Below, in pieces: positions 10,230 through 17,346 of a stretch of DNA of 36,596 nucleotides (position 1 is its first letter; the number at the start of each line of letters is the position of its first letter). The position numbers and the translations under genes were made by a program. The stretch is from Candidatus Woesearchaeota archaeon. GTDB taxonomy: Archaea; Nanobdellota; Nanobdellia; Woesearchaeales; JABMPP01. The notes below the pieces were generated by a model that saw only the letters and a list, made by a program, of their open reading frames with translations, was not told the DNA's origin and made no database searches. Location of the stretch: positions 1 to 36,596 of the forward strand of contig JABMPP010000039.1 in NCBI GenBank assembly GCA_013202955.1, read 5' to 3'.

Positions 10230-13200
10230 CTAACCATTTTTCATCTCCGCTTCCTTTTCAGCAATCTTTAATCTTGTTTTAATAACAGTGTCAGGATTCA
10301 ATGAGATTGAATCAATTCCTTGCTCAACCAAAAATTGTGCAAAATCCTCATAATCGCTTGGTGCTTGACCACATATTCCTATTTTTCTGTTTTTCTCTTT
10401 AGCTGTATGTATAACTTGTGAGATTAATCTTTTAACTGCTTCATTTCTTTCATCATAAATAGAGGAAACTAACTCAGAATCTCTATCTAATCCTAATGTT
10501 AACTGTGTAAGGTCATTTGAGCCTATTGAGAACCCGTCAAATATCTCAGCAAACTGATCAGCTAATATAACATTGGAAGGAATCTCACACATAACATAAA
10601 CCTCTAAATGATTTTCTCCTCTTTTTAATCCGTTTTTTTCCATCTCAGCAAGCACCTTTTTGCCCTCTTCAACAGTTCTGCAAAATGGAACCATAATTTT
10701 TATGTTAGTTAACCCAAAAACATCTCTTACTTTCTTTAAAGCTCTACATTCTAGTGCAAATGCATCTTTATAATTCACATTATAATATCTAGAAGCACCT
10801 CTCCAACCTATCATTGGATTTTCTTCAACTGGTTCATAGAGCTTTCCTCCTACTAAATTAGCATACTCATTGCTCTTGAAATCGCTTAATCTTACAATAA
10901 CATCATTTGGATAAAAGGCAGCTCCTAATATTGCGACACCTTCAGCTAATTTGTCAACAAAAAACTCTGTTTTGTCCTCATAACCTTTAGTACGCTTCTC
11001 TATTTCTGCTTTTACTTTCTTGTCTTTTAAACTATTAAAATTCAACAAAGCATTTGGGTGTATACCAATATGAGAATTTATAATAAACTCTTCTCTTGCC
11101 AATCCTACTCCATCATTTGGCAGAAAACTATACTCAAATGCGTGTTCAGGAGAACCAAGATTCATCATTATTTTTGTTCTTGTTTTAGGAATATTCTCAA
11201 GATTGATTGATTTTACACCAAAAGTGACTAATCCTTCATATACATAACCTTCCTCTCCTTGAGAGCAGTCAACTGTAACACTTTTCACGTCTTTTAATTT
11301 TTCAGTGCCATTTCCTGTTCCAACAATACACGGAATCCCCATTTCTCTTGAGATAATAGCTGCATGACAATTATTTACCAATAGGGGGGTATATCTTTCA
11401 CTAAATACTATGTAATTGTGGTTGTCTTCAACAGTTATGTTATAAACATCATCAACTCCTAAATCTTTAACAAATGAAACTCTTGTTTGTCTAAAATCAG
11501 AACTTAAAATCCTAGAGATATTACTCTTTGTTTTTTTATCCAGTAAATTTAAAGACGTTGAAATCAATTTTTCATCAATTAACAAGTTTTTTCTTATTCT
11601 GTTATTAATTTCTGAATTAGTCCATTTTCTGAATAATTGTTTTGTATTAAAGAATCTTGTTCCCATTGTTCTAAAATCTTTGCATGTCACTCTTTTGGTG
11701 AATCTATTCAGTTCGTTAAGTTTTTCAACTATCTGAACATTGTGGATATTTCTATTTGTTGAAACTTGAGGAACAATTCCAATTCTTAAACAAGATATTA
11801 TCACTGGTTCAAGCAGTTCTTGTTTTGAAATGTAAATACTAATCCTTCCTTTTGAAAATGTCCCATCACCATCAATAACTCCTCCTAAAAAATTATAAGC
11901 CACACTTTCATCAGTTTGTAGCAACATTTCAGTAATTGATTCCATTTCAAGCTTTAATTCTCTTGCAATTAGTTTTGAATAACACCTATATGAATTTGCA
12001 TTTCCAATAACTTTTTCTCCCCTAATAAAGCCTTCTGAAGGTTTTTTTGGACTTTCCCTAAATGTTTTATTATAGGTTGCTTGTAAACATTTATTCATTT
12101 TTGTAATAAATCTTTTTTTCTCCTCTATAGGTTTTTGAATAAAAGTAACCTCTCCATGGGTTCTTGATTGATAAATATGTCCATCTGTCATTAATCCACC
12201 TAATAAATATGCAATATTTTGTTCTTTTTGAGTTGACTTAGTCAATTGTGGAATACTTTGTGCAACCAATAAACATTCCTTATTGTTTAATATATCTTTG
12301 ATTTTAGAATCAATGAGTTTTCCATCTCTAATATTCAACATTTTATGATCTGGGGTAATTTTTAAAAAATTGTTTTTCATTCTTCCACTTTGAGAAGAAC
12401 AAGTTTTGATCAATTTTCCTTTTTTCTTCATTACAGCCTGAATATTTTTCCATTCGGTTTTTAATGTTTTCCTGTTTAAAGAAGGCACTTTTAATCCTTC
12501 ATATCCTCCTTCAAAAACATTTTTTAGACTTCTAAATCCTTTATCAGTTAGAATCTTTGTATCTCCTGAAAAACATGTTCTTCCACCTCTATTTGTAACA
12601 ATAGCAGCTGCTATTTTCATTATTGGCTCCCAATCAGGATCAGTCATGTCTGTTACTAAAACATCACCTTTGTTGAACTTATGAATATCTTTTGCCTTCA
12701 TGATCATATTTACTTTTCCAGCACCTATTTTTTCTCCAACACTCTTTCCTGTCACTAATTTATTTCCTTTGCCTCTTAACTCATAATGGTCAATTTTTTT
12801 CACGCTTTTTTGAGAATGAACTGTTTCTGGTCTTGCCTGCACTATGAATAATTCATTTGTGTTTCCATCTTTTGCCCATTCCATATCCATTGGCTTGTAA
12901 TGGCCTGCTTTATGAGAATAATGATCCTCAATAATACACGCCCACTCTGAAAGCTTTATCAGCTCATCATCAGAAAGCACAAACTTTTCTCTGTCTGTTT
13001 GCTTTACAGGGATATTTTTTGTTGGTGTTTTTCCTTCTGCATACACCATTCTTATTTTTTTGTCACCAATTTTTTTGCTTATTATAGATTTGAATCCTTT
13101 TTTCATTGTTGGCTTGAAAACATAATATTCATCTGGGTTTACTGCTCCCTGCACAACATTTTCTCCTAATCCATAAGCTGCTGTTATGAAAACAACATTT

Positions 13201-13844
13201 TGAAATCCAGATTCAGTATCAATAGAAAACATCACTCCAGAGTTTGCTTTATCGCTTCTGACCATCTTCTGCACTCCAATGCTCAATCCAATTGAAAAAT
13301 GGTCAAATCCTTTATCTTCTCTGTAGCTAATAGCTCTGTTTGTAAACAATGAAGCAAAGCAGTTCTTGCATGCCTCAACAAGCTGTTTATCACCTTTTAT
13401 GTTTAAATATGTCTCTTGCTGGCCTGCAAAACTCGCATCAGGAAGATCCTCAGCAGTTGCAGAGCTTCTAACAGCAACATCAGTATTTTTTCCATACTGC
13501 TTTTGCATATGATGATAACCCTCTTTTATAGCATCCTCAACCTCTTTTGGAAGCTTGGCATTTCTTATCAAATCTCTTACTTTTTTCCCTCTTTCAGCAA
13601 GATTCTTAACATCTTTTGTGTTTAGATCTGACAAAACCTTTTTTATTTTCTCACGTATTTTTGAGTGATCTAAAAGATAATGATAAGCATGAGCTGTAAC
13701 AGCATAACCATTTGGAATATTTACTCCTTTATCTGTCAGATTCTTATACATCTCACCTAAAGAAGCATTTTTCCCTCCAACATGTTTGACATCTTCTATT
13801 CCTAACTGGTCAAACCATAGAATGAGTGCTTTCCCCTTGTCCAT
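10230..13844 (-). CDS. ppsA: Phosphoenolpyruvate synthase, intein-containing
   Basis: VGGKNASLGEM, AVRSSATAEDLP, QARPETV, GGRT|CHAAI, GFSIGSNDLTQ, GICGQAPSD; start at MDKGK (13844) downstream of a TATA box. Confidence 0.96.
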   Translation of the reverse strand: MDKGKALILWFDQLGIEDVKHVGGKNASLGEMYKNLTDKGVNIPNGYAVTAHAYHYLLDHSKIREKIKKVLSDLNTKDVKNLAERGKKVRDLIRNAKLPKEVEDAIKEGYHHMQKQYGKNTDVAVRSSATAEDLPDASFAGQQETYLNIKGDKQLVEACKNCFASLFTNRAISYREDKGFDHFSIGLSIGVQKMVRSDKANSGVMFSIDTESGFQNVVFITAAYGLGENVVQGAVNPDEYYVFKPTMKKGFKSIISKKIGDKKIRMVYAEGKTPTKNIPVKQTDREKFVLSDDELIKLSEWACIIEDHYSHKAGHYKPMDMEWAKDGNTNELFIVQARPETVHSQKSVKKIDHYELRGKGNKLVTGKSVGEKIGAGKVNMIMKAKDIHKFNKGDVLVTDMTDPDWEPIMKIAAAIVTNRGGRTCFSGDTKILTDKGFRSLKNVFEGGYEGLKVPSLNRKTLKTEWKNIQAVMKKKGKLIKTCSSQSGRMKNNFLKITPDHKMLNIRDGKLIDSKIKDILNNKECLLVAQSIPQLTKSTQKEQNIAYLLGGLMTDGHIYQSRTHGEVTFIQKPIEEKKRFITKMNKCLQATYNKTFRESPKKPSEGFIRGEKVIGNANSYRCYSKLIARELKLEMESITEMLLQTDESVAYNFLGGVIDGDGTFSKGRISIYISKQELLEPVIISCLRIGIVPQVSTNRNIHNVQIVEKLNELNRFTKRVTCKDFRTMGTRFFNTKQLFRKWTNSEINNRIRKNLLIDEKLISTSLNLLDKKTKSNISRILSSDFRQTRVSFVKDLGVDDVYNITVEDNHNYIVFSERYTPLLVNNCHAAIISREMGIPCIVGTGNGTEKLKDVKSVTVDCSQGEEGYVYEGLVTFGVKSINLENIPKTRTKIMMNLGSPEHAFEYSFLPNDGVGLAREEFIINSHIGIHPNALLNFNSLKDKKVKAEIEKRTKGYEDKTEFFVDKLAEGVAILGAAFYPNDVIVRLSDFKSNEYANLVGGKLYEPVEENPMIGWRGASRYYNVNYKDAFALECRALKKVRDVFGLTNIKIMVPFCRTVEEGKKVLAEMEKNGLKRGENHLEVYVMCEIPSNVILADQFAEIFDGFSIGSNDLTQLTLGLDRDSELVSSIYDERNEAVKRLISQVIHTAKEKNRKIGICGQAPSDYEDFAQFLVEQGIDSISLNPDTVIKTRLKIAEKEAEMKNG
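11370..12575 (-). mobile_element. Intein (402 aa) with LAGLIDADG homing endonuclease in ppsA
   Basis: Starts CFSGDT, block B TPDH, LAGLIDADG-like YLLGGLMTDG and FLGGVIDGDG, block F DVYNITVEDNHNY, ends LVNN followed by Cys+1. Confidence 0.95.
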
Positions 13845-13920
13845 TTTAATCTTAAACCATTCAGATGAGTATATAAACATTTGTTAGTATCAAGAAATGA
13901 TAAAAACCACTGTTTTTTCC

Positions 13921-13934
13921 AAAAGCTTTAAATC
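13921..13934 (+). promoter_or_regulatory. BRE/TATA promoter of sigma-70 gene
   Basis: AAAAGC-TTTAAATC about 25 nt upstream of ATG 13960, similar spacing to other promoters in the window. Confidence 0.6.
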
Positions 13935-13959
13935 TACTCTGTTTTTTCTGGACACTAAC

Positions 13960-14844
13960 ATGGATTACATTGATAAAAAACCCAAAAGTGGTCTTACTGT
14001 TTATATGGAAGAGATAGGAAAACCTGAGTATGATCCTCTTACACCTAATCAGGAAGTGTTGCTTGCTCAGAGGATAAAACAAGGAGACCAAGAAGCATTT
14101 TTTGAATTATTTAAACACAACCTAAGATTTGTTATTTCTGCTGCAAAAATGTTTAATAACTATTCTGACAAAATGTCTCTTGAAGACAGAATACAAGCAG
14201 GAAATATGGGTCTGTTTGAAGCAGCCAAAAGATATGATGAAACAAGAGGGTTTAAATTCATAACATACGCAGTGTGGTGGATAAAACAAAGAATAAGAAG
14301 TGCTTATTTTGAAAAATATAAGTATGTTGTTAAATTGCCAATGAACAGGCAAGCACTAATTGGAAAAATAAAAGAGAACCATGAAACATTCCTTGCAGTA
14401 AACGAAGGAAGAGAACCAACTTCTTATCAGTTAATAGATCTAATGAAACAAACGAGCGGAAAACTGCCTAATTTTTGTAATGTAGATGATATTTACTTAG
14501 ATGGTGTTCATATTGAAAAATCTTTAGATCAAAATCTTTGGGAAGATGATAAAAGACAAGTCTACAATAAAATTCCCGACACTAGTTCACTAGATCCTGA
14601 AAAATATTCTATGCAGACAAATGGGCATGAAGATATAGAAAAATTACTTTCGCTTCTTGATAAAAGAAGCCGTACAATAGTATGCATGTATTTAGGTATT
14701 GATGGATATCAGAAACTAACTCTTGAAGAGATAGGAACTGAGTTTGGTTTTACCAGAGAGCGTGCAAGACAGATAAAAAGAGATGCTCTAATCACGTTAA
14801 GACATCCTGCACATAAAGAACTTGTGATGAATTTAGTTGATTAA
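13960..14844 (+). CDS. Sigma-70 family RNA polymerase sigma factor (short RpoD/RpoS-like, no region 1.1)
   Basis: Region 1.2 YMEEIG..LT...E..LA; region 2 NLRFVIS, IQAGNMGL.EAA.RYD.TRGFKFITYAVWWIKQ; region 3 REPT, SLDQ; region 4 TLEEIG..FGFTRERARQI. Confidence 0.93.
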   Translation: MDYIDKKPKSGLTVYMEEIGKPEYDPLTPNQEVLLAQRIKQGDQEAFFELFKHNLRFVISAAKMFNNYSDKMSLEDRIQAGNMGLFEAAKRYDETRGFKFITYAVWWIKQRIRSAYFEKYKYVVKLPMNRQALIGKIKENHETFLAVNEGREPTSYQLIDLMKQTSGKLPNFCNVDDIYLDGVHIEKSLDQNLWEDDKRQVYNKIPDTSSLDPEKYSMQTNGHEDIEKLLSLLDKRSRTIVCMYLGIDGYQKLTLEEIGTEFGFTRERARQIKRDALITLRHPAHKELVMNLVD

Positions 14845-16134: not shown

Positions 16135-16329
16135 ATGTTCAATGACTCCCTGTCGCCTCAATTTCTATACGAAATTCCACCCCCACAAACCCACAGAGAT
16201 GGGGAGTCCTTCATATTCAAAATGTCAGACGAAAACACAAAAGCAAGTGTGTATATGTTTTTAGTAGTTTTTTCTACAGCAGTTCTAGCTTATGTAACCA
16301 AGGATATCTCTCATATACTTAGAATGTAA
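16135..16329 (+). CDS. Small hypothetical protein with one TM segment
   Basis: GAGGT upstream of ATG, TATA near 16091, hydrophobic C-terminal half. Confidence 0.45.
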   Translation: MFNDSLSPQFLYEIPPPQTHRDGESFIFKMSDENTKASVYMFLVVFSTAVLAYVTKDISHILRM

Positions 16330-16333
16330 GTTA

Positions 16334-16347
16334 GTAAGTTTTATATA
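16334..16347 (+). promoter_or_regulatory. BRE/TATA box upstream of tRNA-Gln locus
   Basis: TTTATATA at 16340-16347. Confidence 0.55.
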
Positions 16348-16380
16348 GCAATATTAGTTCTAATTTGAGATATATTACTC

Positions 16381-16473
16381 AGCCCCGTGGTGTAGCGCAG
16401 TGGTTTCGCCCACTGGCGACGAAAGGCGACTCCTAGTCTTCGACCGGAGTCCCCTACAAGGGTTGTGTATATG
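16381..16473 (+). repeat. Duplicate of tRNA-Gln nt 1-17 followed by a GC-rich double-hairpin (REP/REPIN-like) insert
   Basis: AGCCCCGTGGTGTAGCG at 16381-16397 and 16474-16490; hairpins CAGTGG/CCACTG and GACTCC/GGAGTC; TGTAG...CTACA ends. Confidence 0.8.
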
Positions 16474-16546
16474 AGCCCCGTGGTGTAGCGGTCAAGCATC
16501 CGAGATTTTGGGTCTCGGGACCTCGGTTCGAGTCCGGGCGGGGCTA
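16474..16546 (+). tRNA. tRNA-Gln (anticodon TTG)
   Basis: Acceptor AGCCCCG/CGGGGCT plus A73, anticodon arm CGAGA-TT TTG GG-TCTCG, T arm CTCGG-TTCGAGT-CCGGG; A1-U72 is typical of archaeal tRNA-Gln; CCA not encoded. Confidence 0.95.
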
Positions 16547-16614
16547 TATTATTATCACTAATTAGTGACAAAAATAGAAACATTTATATATGAATTCTGC
16601 ATATTTTTTACCAT

Positions 16615-17346
16615 ATGTCGCGACTTAAACAGAAGATAGGAAAAGGAGTAGTTTTTTCTCTAATTACATTAATGTTAGGTGGCAGCGAAAAGAAATGTGA
16701 ATATATTCCCCGTTATTCTACAAATGTTCATCCAAAGAGTATAGAATGGGTAGATGAAAACATAGAAAGAATAGCAAAGGAACAAGAAGAAAAATTAGGG
16801 ATTAAATATCCATATCTTCCTGAAATAAAATTTGAACAACATCCTGATAAAAGTCTTGGAATGTATTATGAGCCTTATATCAACACACTTATCTTAGTGC
16901 TTCCCCAATATGCTCATTTTAATCCTTCTGAAATAGAAGAATATCTTGATCATGAATTAGGTCATGCTTATACTGACATATTAAATGAAATAAAAGGTAA
17001 TGCTAGCTGGCCAACATCACAAAAAGGAATAAAATATTACACACAAAGATTGATTTTTGAAGGAATAGCAGAATATTTCAGAAAACAAATGAAAGAAAAC
17101 ACAGAAGATAATTTTGATGATAATTATTGGCCAAAAACTCTTGGAGAATTTGTTGAAAAAATGAATTTTGAAGATAAAAAAATAATATATGATGGAGGAC
17201 ATAGCATTGTAAAACCAGTTTTAGATCATATGGGTGTTGAAGAAGGAATCTTATTTTTGATAAAAAATATTCCAAGAAAAAAAGATCTTGGGAACATACC
17301 ACAATATCAACAAAGATTATATGAAAAAGCAAATATTATTTCTTAA
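16615..17346 (+). CDS. Putative exported or anchored zincin (gluzincin-like) metallopeptidase
   Basis: Basic plus hydrophobic N-terminus; HELGH and downstream EGIAEY. Confidence 0.65.
   Translation: MSRLKQKIGKGVVFSLITLMLGGSEKKCEYIPRYSTNVHPKSIEWVDENIERIAKEQEEKLGIKYPYLPEIKFEQHPDKSLGMYYEPYINTLILVLPQYAHFNPSEIEEYLDHELGHAYTDILNEIKGNASWPTSQKGIKYYTQRLIFEGIAEYFRKQMKENTEDNFDDNYWPKTLGEFVEKMNFEDKKIIYDGGHSIVKPVLDHMGVEEGILFLIKNIPRKKDLGNIPQYQQRLYEKANIIS

Follow-up and report, generated by a model that had tools for sequence, protein, structure and literature searches.

The locus described here raises the question of why a tRNA gene should be preceded by a second, exact copy of its own 5' end. The window, by which we mean the whole stretch of 36,596 nt that was analyzed, comes from a woesearchaeal genome assembly of 1.2 Mb in 124 contigs (87% complete, about 33% GC) and contains a single tRNA gene, a tRNA-Gln(UUG). 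This gene was called by ARAGORN, matches the Rfam tRNA model with 50.6 bits, and is the only sequence in the entire window to pass an Rfam gathering threshold; by ARAGORN it is also the only tRNA-Gln(UUG) gene of the genome.

The tRNA-Gln(UUG) locus and its likely promoter

The 17-mer AGCCCCGTGGTGTAGCG is present in two exact copies in the window, one standing alone and the other, at 16474-16490, forming the 5' end of the tRNA-Gln(UUG) gene. A third copy is absent from the window even when up to 3 mismatches are allowed. The chance expectation for such a repeat is 0.01, and 0 of 100 shuffled sequences contained two matches, which bears out the duplication described in the initial annotation. 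The two copies enclose a GC-rich insert of 76 nt (16398-16473), and the orphan fragment, whose sequence ends in the D-loop, stops no more than 1 nt from the site at which relatives carry a D-loop intron. The features of the locus are collected in Table 1.

Table 1. Positions of the features of the tRNA-Gln(UUG) locus and the basis of each assignment
Feature	Position	Strand	Basis
TATA-like box TTTATATA	16340-16347	+	Likely promoter of the whole unit; read by eye
Orphan copy of tRNA-Gln(UUG) nucleotides 1-17	16381-16397	+	Exact repeat; shuffle test
Hairpin 1, CAGTGG-TTTCGC-CCACTG	16398-16415	+	Predicted fold; similar copies elsewhere
Purine-rich linker GCGACGAA	16416-16423	+	Predicted fold; alignment
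Hairpin 2, GACUCCUAG...CCGGAGUC	16424-16455	+	Conserved family signature; covariation
A/U-rich spacer	16456-16473	+	Differs at every locus compared
Complete, uninterrupted tRNA-Gln(UUG)	16474-16546	+	ARAGORN; Rfam

A contig of run X1 (18,596 nt), made with a different assembler, has no differences from the window across 16250-16650 and speaks against a local misassembly; X1 is possibly the source sample itself, and for that reason the contig does not count as independent data. Small contigs from two other studies (X3 and X4), of low depth and small share, differ from the window upstream of 16381 but show no differences inside 16381-16439/16456.

The TATA-like box lies 33 nt before the first 17-nt copy. 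The sole TATA-like run before the second copy, at 16466-16472 as read by eye, is 1-8 nt from +1 and too close to it, so that the placement of the TATA element upstream of the duplicate, as first annotated, holds. Of 14 tRNA-Gln loci tried in relatives, 3 could not be placed and 11 were compared by eye. This comparison, suggested as a search for an empty site, found no duplication at any of the 11; these loci have a TTTATAAA-type box upstream of +1, which by our own count is 24-28 nt from +1 in five of them. The TATA box of the window precedes the orphan copy, unlike the gene-proximal boxes of the relatives, which makes it probable that the gene originally began with the orphan. The position of the promoter also supports the earlier suggestion that the insert is co-transcribed with the tRNA, which we infer to be the case.

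A hairpin module at tRNA genes and in tRNA introns

Judged by its predicted fold, the 76-nt insert is a single hairpin-linker-hairpin module. The two hairpins, CAGTGG/CCACTG and GACTCC/GGAGTC, are present as they were described initially. The core arms of hairpin 2 lie at 16428-16451, and the stem consists of 3 closing pairs, a C/C mismatch, the GACUCC/GGAGUC helix, a UA/C internal loop and a GUC/GAC inner stem capped by a UUC loop. These arms are the only inverted pair of at least 7 nt in the insert, and no terminal inverted repeats were found in it. The initial annotation had read the insert as two inward-facing units, each a GTAG followed by a palindrome. The sequences TGTAG (16391-16395) and CTACA (16454-16458) are indeed there, but the 5' GTAG is the D-arm of the tRNA itself, and the sequences of the two hairpins are unrelated and not inverted copies of one unit, so this part of the description does not hold.

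In the predicted fold the linker is partly paired with the D-arm part of the orphan fragment, and the spacer (16460-16471) pairs with the start of the leader. When six upstream bases were included (16375-16546), the leader and the tRNA were predicted to form separate domains (z = -1.7; 8 of 200 shuffles equally stable); when these bases were left out, the first 17-nt copy was predicted to pair with the 3' acceptor strand. In terms of fold energy, the leader is unexceptional (z = -1.0 and -1.7).

The insert is not unique, as a search for further copies had been expected to decide. Hairpin 2 has a second copy in the same genome (94% over 34 nt), which lies beside tRNA-Gln(CUG) on contig C4, on the opposite strand and abutting the 5' end of this tRNA. 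Among 40 relatives searched, matches to the core were found in two genomes from other families of the same order, at 100% and 97% over 32 nt in G003, and at 94% over 32 nt and 83% over 53 nt in G018. A genome of the same family, G001, has a match to the hairpin-1 part (89% over 28 nt) beside a duplicated tRNA-Asn 5' fragment. Variants of hairpin 1 also occur at other tRNA genes of the source genome, where motif scans and reading by eye located hairpin-1-type motifs in about 10 places; an nhmmer profile of hairpin 1 and linker was too weak for a reliable listing, and counts of variants therefore come from motif scans and our own reading.

For a wider survey, hairpin 2 was searched with the pattern GACTCCTAG-N5-12-CCGGAGTC. 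Of 301 genomes sampled from the order, 19 had matches; they represent 18 of 216 genera, with 1-3 sites per genome and 30 sites in all; the reversed pattern, used as a control, gave 0 matches in all genomes listed. With a covariance model (R1) built from 29 copies of hairpin 2, the module was recognized in 17 of 151 genomes, belonging to 16 of 144 genera; the source genome yielded just the two known copies, and G001 none. In the alignment of the 29 copies, 97.2% of cells are paired, as compared with 85.7% in shuffles, and none of 500 shuffles reached as high a value. Both sides change in 7 of the 14 pairs; in shifted controls the paired share is 32-46%. Seven pairs, six of them outer and one inner, are uninformative, being dictated by the pattern used for the search, but covariation is seen in the three closing pairs and in the inner stem, which the pattern left free. 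The alignment has 24 positions of hairpin 2 that are invariant across 18 genera, and the linker is A/C/G-rich in all 29 copies.

Comparison with Rfam and analysis of covariation were both proposed at the outset: the stems of hairpin 2 covary, and no Rfam family was found for the module, the best match in 16330-16480 being a chance-level hit to Chlorobi-1 (10.1 bits, E = 3.4). A 36-nt stretch specific to the window gave 0 matches in metagenomes. Two pattern matches on viral contigs lie in high-GC, coding-like DNA and have no inner stem; these were judged to be chance matches. We found no published account of the module or of 17-nt terminal tRNA duplications in a search of openly accessible articles.

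The contexts of the 30 genome sites and of 20 metagenome contigs with an identical 24-nt hairpin were assigned by eye. By this assignment, 23 of the genome sites are tied to tRNA genes, with the module in the orientation of the tRNA at 22 of the 23, and all tRNA-linked metagenome copies have this orientation as well. The copies in relatives lie mostly inside non-canonical introns of the tRNA D-loop and T-loop, and about 12 of the 20 metagenome copies are likewise D- or T-loop introns, the rest being intergenic. The genomic neighbors of the module are housekeeping genes. The insert in the window is homologous to genuine D-loop and T-loop introns of relatives, and the broader idea with which the analysis began, that of a tRNA-associated mini-element or structured leader related to D-loop introns, is supported.

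Many module copies lie in D- or T-loop inserts of tRNA genes that were missed by ARAGORN. For example, the tRNA-Arg(CCU) of G018, a complete genome, became visible to ARAGORN only after three predicted inserts were removed, two of which contain the hairpin. In the source genome, a truncated 70-nt call of tRNA-Glu became one of 75 nt on removal of a T-loop insert; the T-loop intron of tRNA-Glu on contig C28 of this genome is without the module. In archaeal tRNA introns, the bulge-helix-bulge motif includes both splice sites and is made up of a 4-bp helix in the center, a 3-nt bulge on each side of it, and an outer helix. In all three T-loop introns tested, the central helix has 4 of 4 Watson-Crick pairs, the bulges are of 3 nt, and the 5-bp T-stem serves as outer helix. 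The guessed boundaries of a T-arm intron on contig C9 of G003 gave an outer helix of 1 and are probably off. Terminal inverted arms are seen in full intron copies: those in a tRNA-Ile intron of the source genome measure 22 nt at 73%, with a perfect 7-mer in addition, and those in a D-loop intron from a metagenome 17 nt at 76%. In one metagenome intron copy, the first 15 nt of the host tRNA are those of tRNA-Gln(UUG); after removal of its T-loop insert, ARAGORN (with introns allowed) called this tRNA as Pro(UGG) with a 29-nt anticodon-loop intron, and its identity is ambiguous.

Duplicated tRNA ends beside the module

The arrangement of the Gln(UUG) locus, an orphan 5' tRNA fragment followed by hairpin 1, hairpin 2, an A/U-rich spacer and a complete tRNA, was recognized by eye at 10 further sites among the 30. 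These sites are in G009, G014, G041, G056 (two sites), G068, G096 (two sites) and the unpublished genome G244 (two sites). Exact flanking repeats of at least 14 nt were found at 10 of the 30 sites. Setting aside one that is a run of poly-T and one that reflects a tandem duplication of genes, there are eight such repeats, with lengths of 14, 17, 17, 17, 18, 20, 21 and 27 nt, as compared with maxima of at most 14 nt in shuffled sequences. One of these eight, in G296, belongs to an insert at the 5' end of a sequence that is not a tRNA but resembles an RNA gene.

An unbiased scan of the source genome for exact repeats of at least 13 nt at a spacing of 30-350 nt returned 159 repeats, mostly from repetitive coding DNA. 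Duplications of tRNA 5' ends in this genome are those of tRNA-Gln (17 nt), tRNA-Glu (17 nt), tRNA-Thr (18 nt) and tRNA-Gly on contig C36 (13 nt exact, or 17 nt with one indel, from -8 to +9), together with a partial duplication of 16 nt at tRNA-Ser. Those of tRNA-Glu, tRNA-Thr and tRNA-Gly have the same layout as Gln(UUG), with variant modules. Mirror-image duplications of the 3' end were found for tRNA-Trp (17 nt, positions 57-73), for another tRNA (17 nt) and for tRNA-Thr(UGU) (13 nt). At the 17-nt 3' duplications, the complete tRNA comes first, followed by a T-rich spacer, a variant hairpin 2, hairpin 1 and finally the orphan 3' fragment; it is always the hairpin-1 end of the module that faces the orphan piece.

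In G056, two tRNA-Glu paralogs differ at position 9, and each orphan has the sequence of its own gene; the duplication is therefore target-derived. The majority of orphan fragments have kept the sequence of their gene, and decayed ones were found in G041, in G096 and at the tRNA-Gly locus on C36 of the source genome. Flanking repeats of at least 11 nt are missing from all 20 metagenome contigs that carry the identical hairpin, which ties the duplication to the ends of tRNA or other RNA genes and not to every insertion. The commonest repeat length is 17 nt, and it is seen at different offsets (-8 to +9, -2 to +15, +1 to +17, and 57 to 73). Such a preferred length at varied offsets looks like a target-site duplication, but the spread from 14 to 27 nt and the intergenic copies that lack a repeat argue against a simple fixed stagger. 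Given this range of lengths, a target-site duplication of fixed length is not established.

Proposed origin of a probable 5' leader and comparison with known systems

The reading that we prefer, to which we assign a probability of roughly 60%, is that the insert is a tolerated, structured 5' leader that goes back to the entry of an element at the site of D-loop introns, accompanied by a duplication of target sequence. The element, composed of a variable hairpin 1, a purine-rich linker and a conserved hairpin 2, would colonize tRNA genes and a few other intergenic sites, and in most relatives it would reside inside D- or T-loop introns that need splicing. At Gln(UUG) it would have entered immediately downstream of nucleotide 17 in the 5' end that the gene had at first; this end would have retained the promoter, and a target-derived second copy of nucleotides 1-17 downstream would have restored an uninterrupted gene. 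The resulting order would be promoter, orphan 5' exon, element, spacer and intact gene. The duplication may have arisen together with the insertion of the element or with a rearrangement. Transcription would probably start about 7-11 nt before the orphan copy and read through the module into the tRNA; the leader of about 100 nt would fold independently of the tRNA, and RNase P would cut at 16473/16474 to generate the mature 5' end of tRNA-Gln. The genome contains an RNase P RNA (RF00373, 135.7 bits) and a Pop5/Rpp14 gene (PF01900, 66.4 bits), the latter adjoining tRNA-Gln(CUG).

Hairpin 2 is conserved beyond what would be expected of a passive leader, and for this the leader model has no explanation. 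Its invariance, together with the pattern of differences in the X3 and X4 contigs, hints at either constraint or recent transfer. The orphan and the module could accordingly be under selection as a functional leader or small RNA, for instance as a protein-binding or processing module that is freed by RNase P or excised from introns; in a variant of this explanation, the acceptor strand of the orphan could act in cis on the folding of the pre-tRNA. In addition to the invariant positions in 18 genera and the covarying inner and closing stems, such a function is favored by the orientation of the module at 22 of 23 genome sites and all metagenome sites linked to tRNAs (assigned by eye), by contigs of two other studies that vary upstream of 16381 and not in the orphan plus module, and by orphan fragments that are mostly unchanged relative to their own gene. 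We nevertheless consider it unlikely, since some orphans are decayed (in G041, G096 and at tRNA-Gly on C36 of the source genome), the module was detected in only about 6-11% of the genomes sampled from the order, with no copy found in G001 of the same family, other non-canonical introns such as the T-loop intron of tRNA-Glu on contig C28 do without it, and it has no Rfam family. This explanation overlaps with the tolerated leader, and the two differ solely in the claim of a present-day function.

Integrative elements of archaea classically leave direct repeats of a tRNA terminus on the two sides of an insert. The 17-nt repeat around the 76-nt insert could in this light be attL and attR, left by a tRNA-targeting element that was later deleted to its present size. 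A similar case is described in the accessible part of PMC3293823 for Caldiarchaeum, in which a 5' fragment of tRNA-Thr and the gene downstream of it are 1.8 kb apart and separated by an insert that encodes a recombinase; here too, the 5' fragment is a direct repeat upstream of a complete gene, with foreign DNA between the two. The same part of that source proposes a link between integration events that leave tRNA fragments and the gain of introns. The Gln(UUG) insert differs from the 1.8-kb, recombinase-encoding one of Caldiarchaeum in being 76 nt long and non-coding and in belonging to a multi-copy hairpin family with tRNA-specific repeats. Two further observations are in keeping with integration. 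The 3' end of tRNA-Gln in G007 is repeated in att-like fashion, as 13-nt copies 0.6-1.5 kb apart, and the 3'-end duplications of the source genome begin in the T-loop, which we take to be a known sublocation used by integrases. However, the repeats differ from one tRNA to another (Gln, Glu, Thr, Gly, Arg, Asp, Asn and Trp) beside a single family of modules, and a single attP cannot account for them. The inserts are 60-130 nt long with no coding remnant, an integrase (PF00589) was found in 1 of 26 module-flanking regions (79 ORFs), PF00589 had no match in the source genome or in G003, and the two matches on viral contigs look like chance. An integration relic is for these reasons quite improbable.

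It is also conceivable that the first copy is the real 5' exon and that splicing endonuclease removes 93 nt, namely the insert and the second copy, as a D-loop intron. The repeat is exact, so that in-register removal of 93 nt, in any register within the repeat, leaves an identical tRNA sequence. This is favored by the position of the insert at the site of D-loop introns, by its homology to genuine introns of that kind, and by the predicted pairing of the first copy with the 3' acceptor strand when the upstream bases are left out of the fold. A bulge-helix-bulge motif was, however, found at none of the 20 in-register positions. The best three have four central pairs, mostly G-U, with 0 outer pairs and at most one inner helix pair, as compared with 4 of 4 central and 5 outer pairs in genuine introns; the other 17 have fewer than four central pairs. 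A wider scan likewise found no bulge-helix-bulge site that would restore the tRNA. The insert is also without the 3' inverted arm seen in full introns, and orphan copies elsewhere are sometimes defective. Thus, of the nascent D-loop intron suggested in the initial annotation, the location and the homology to introns stand, and present-day splicing is very unlikely. A cut by splicing endonuclease at the mature 5' end was considered separately and ruled out, there being no outer helix. The gene for the splicing endonuclease EndA (PF01974) was found in all four relatives tested, in G018 as an ORF of 185 aa, and not in the 87%-complete source genome.

In favor of the REP/REPIN doublet proposed initially, with a RAYT-type HUH transposase to move it, are the conserved irregularities of the imperfect hairpins and the presence of a Y1 gene in the genome. 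This reading is largely refuted, as GTAG/CTAC is not conserved (CTAC follows hairpin 2 in 2 of 29 copies), the hairpins are not mutual inverted copies, the model matches just twice in the source genome, and the single Y1 gene (PF01797) that the search for such transposases recovered is IS200-like, with end hairpins unlike the module, and Y1 was not found in the module-bearing genomes G018 and G056. A guide-RNA-like reading, with the module as scaffold and a 17-nt tail identical to the tRNA, was also considered; the nucleases looked for in this regard were Y1 and Cas1, and Cas1 was found in 0 of 5 genomes.

REP and REPIN sequences characteristically occur in tens to hundreds of copies per genome with a cognate Y1 gene that is usually flanked by the repeats. 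The module resembles these and palindromic elements derived from IS200/IS605 in being small and non-coding with imperfect hairpins, and differs from REP/REPIN in having no conserved flanking tetranucleotide, no inverted doublet, no cognate Y1 and a low copy number. To our knowledge, no transposase is known for the module. Y1 transposases are present in the source genome, G003 and G096, but were not found in G018, a complete genome with three module copies, or in G056, which has three to four. Among five genomes searched, reverse transcriptase (PF00078) was found in one and Cas1 in none, and no transposase, integrase, reverse transcriptase or Cas1 tracks the module consistently. An origin through reverse transcription was rejected, as PF00078 was found in merely one of the five genomes.

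Returning to the element that would have given rise to the tolerated leader, we tentatively suggest that the module stands for a family of hairpin elements in DPANN-type archaea that has not been described before. These elements would be mobile and introner-like and would insert into genes for stable RNAs, either in the D-loop or T-loop or at an end of the gene. Copies would survive as bulge-helix-bulge introns or, through duplication of the terminal 17 nt or so, as leaders and trailers, and the GACUCCUAG...CCGGAGUC hairpin may be a handle for a mobilizing or processing protein. MITEs and eukaryotic introners are short, non-autonomous elements within genes that are tolerated because they are removed by RNA processing. 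Like these, full-length intron copies of the module have terminal inverted arms, and some copies have target-derived flanking repeats. Unlike introners, the module would be removed by archaeal splicing endonuclease or RNase P and not by the spliceosome; unlike MITEs, the copy in the window has no terminal inverted repeat, and the repeats are long and variable (17 nt being the commonest) and confined to the ends of tRNA and other RNA genes.

Sharing of insert sequences between different tRNAs is known from the Thermoproteales, where it was read as intron transposition (Fujishima et al. 2010, as cited in the accessible part of PMC4033280), and such sharing implies spread between tRNA genes. As in the Thermoproteales, similar inserts are found here at the D-loop and T-loop of different tRNA species, and the module copies of relatives are predicted to be removed as introns, with the motif present in 3 of 3 T-loop cases. 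The differences are that the host belongs to a small-genome, DPANN-like order, that the module is a defined two-hairpin unit with an invariant hairpin which also occurs in leaders, trailers and intergenic DNA, and that the copy in the window is without the splicing motif and lies between duplicated exon stretches of 17 nt, a feature that the accessible part of PMC4033280 does not mention. The same part of this source covers the split tRNA genes of Nanoarchaeum and Caldivirga, which share with Gln(UUG) a free-standing 5' tRNA piece followed by structured non-tRNA sequence. Unlike in split genes, there is no complementary partner sequence preceding a 3' piece, and a complete gene lies directly downstream, which makes trans-splicing unnecessary.

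Incomplete tRNA sets in DPANN genomes have been taken as a sign of hidden, disrupted genes (PMC5829648, in its accessible part). In the source genome, standard finders recovered 19-20 tRNAs, and the module helps to account for this low count; the hairpin model R1 provides a search handle for hidden tRNA genes. How archaeal tRNA genes gain non-canonical introns and become fragmented is an old question, on which prior evidence comes, in the accessible parts of these sources, from a population study (PMC3293823) and from the similarity of introns in the Thermoproteales (PMC4033280). In this lineage a single module ties together three states, namely D- and T-loop introns, orphan terminal exons and intergenic copies, and the path between them is therefore testable by comparative genomics and RNA work. 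If the introner-like reading is true, the Gln(UUG) locus would be a fresh example of the step that makes orphan tRNA exons, which may later become introns or split genes.

Modules and tRNA genes in the genome of the window

The second copy of the two-hairpin module in the genome of the window (G000) abuts position +1 of tRNA-Gln(CUG), and at this locus on contig C4 a flanking repeat is absent. Variants of the module were found in reverse orientation at other tRNA genes of the same genome (see table). It was also observed that the tRNA terminus is often met directly by the hairpin-1 end of the module.

ARAGORN predicted only 19 tRNA genes in this 87%-complete genome, and 20 once introns were allowed; several multi-intron tRNA genes were skipped or cut short by the program. 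In addition, a partial duplicate of tRNA-Ser(CGA), spanning roughly positions 5 to 45 and including an anticodon arm, lies immediately 5' of the complete gene (G000:C28:11120-11350), with no recognisable module at this locus.

Coordinates and settings of features in the genome of the window
Feature	Location	Strand	Remarks
Second module copy	G000:C4:20265-20330 (L002 1479-1545)	opposite to tRNA	upstream of tRNA-Gln(CUG)
Variant modules	G000: tRNA-Cys (C96); tRNA-Gly(GCC) (C120); tRNA-Gly(UCC) (C36); a tRNA on C35	reverse-oriented	end exactly at tRNA +1
IS200-like element	G000:C6:1-700		Y1 transposase ORF; hairpins on both flanks
Multi-intron tRNA genes (examples)	G000: tRNA-Ile on C87; tRNA-Glu on C28; tRNA at start of C35		skipped or cut short by ARAGORN
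Sigma-70 factor, bacterial-type	window 13897-14844	+	315 aa; regions 1.2, 2 and 4
PEP synthase / pyruvate phosphate dikinase-like gene	window 10230-13880	-	1216 aa; split by intein with LAGLIDADG domain

Hairpin arrays and other repeat-bearing loci

The module also occurs within arrays of further short hairpins, in one locus of genome G298 (L042), two of genome G174 (L040 and L051) and two metagenome loci (L174 and L184). The array units around it are of the type GGAAATC-TTTG-GATTTCC. In G298 the module is enclosed by a sequence with pairing ends, GUCGCCUUGGCC...GGCCAUGGCGGCGAC; this sequence may be a further non-coding RNA that bears an insert. The hairpins flanking the IS200-like element of G000 are CCTCGCCCTAAAGGACGAGG and CTCGTGCTAAAGCACGAG, and GTATC follows both of them.

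In the relative G007 (contig C50; L057, L066), tRNA-Gln(UUG) has an insert in the D-loop region, flanked by CAAT. Beyond it the 3' end of the tRNA recurs as 13-nt copies at a spacing of 0.6-1.5 kb, every one preceded by a conserved arm of roughly 30 nt; the series looks like stacked integrated elements.

Contig composition and contig depth

An archaeal-type tRNA-Gln and a bacterial-type sigma-70 gene share the contig of the window. The top relatives of the sigma factor in the genome collection are bacterial, at about 37-42% identity, with Calditrichota, Latescibacterota, Ignavibacteria and Gemmatimonadota as the main groups among the best of them. This juxtaposition could reflect horizontal transfer into an archaeon or a chimeric contig.

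Contig depth at hairpin 2 (window 16418-16459) was 58-84 in sequencing runs X1 and X2, and on its flanks 12.6 in X1 and 2 or less in X2. The excess comes from high-depth contigs of 54-60 nt. Hairpin 2 is therefore a collapsed repeat, common to many genomes of that freshwater community.
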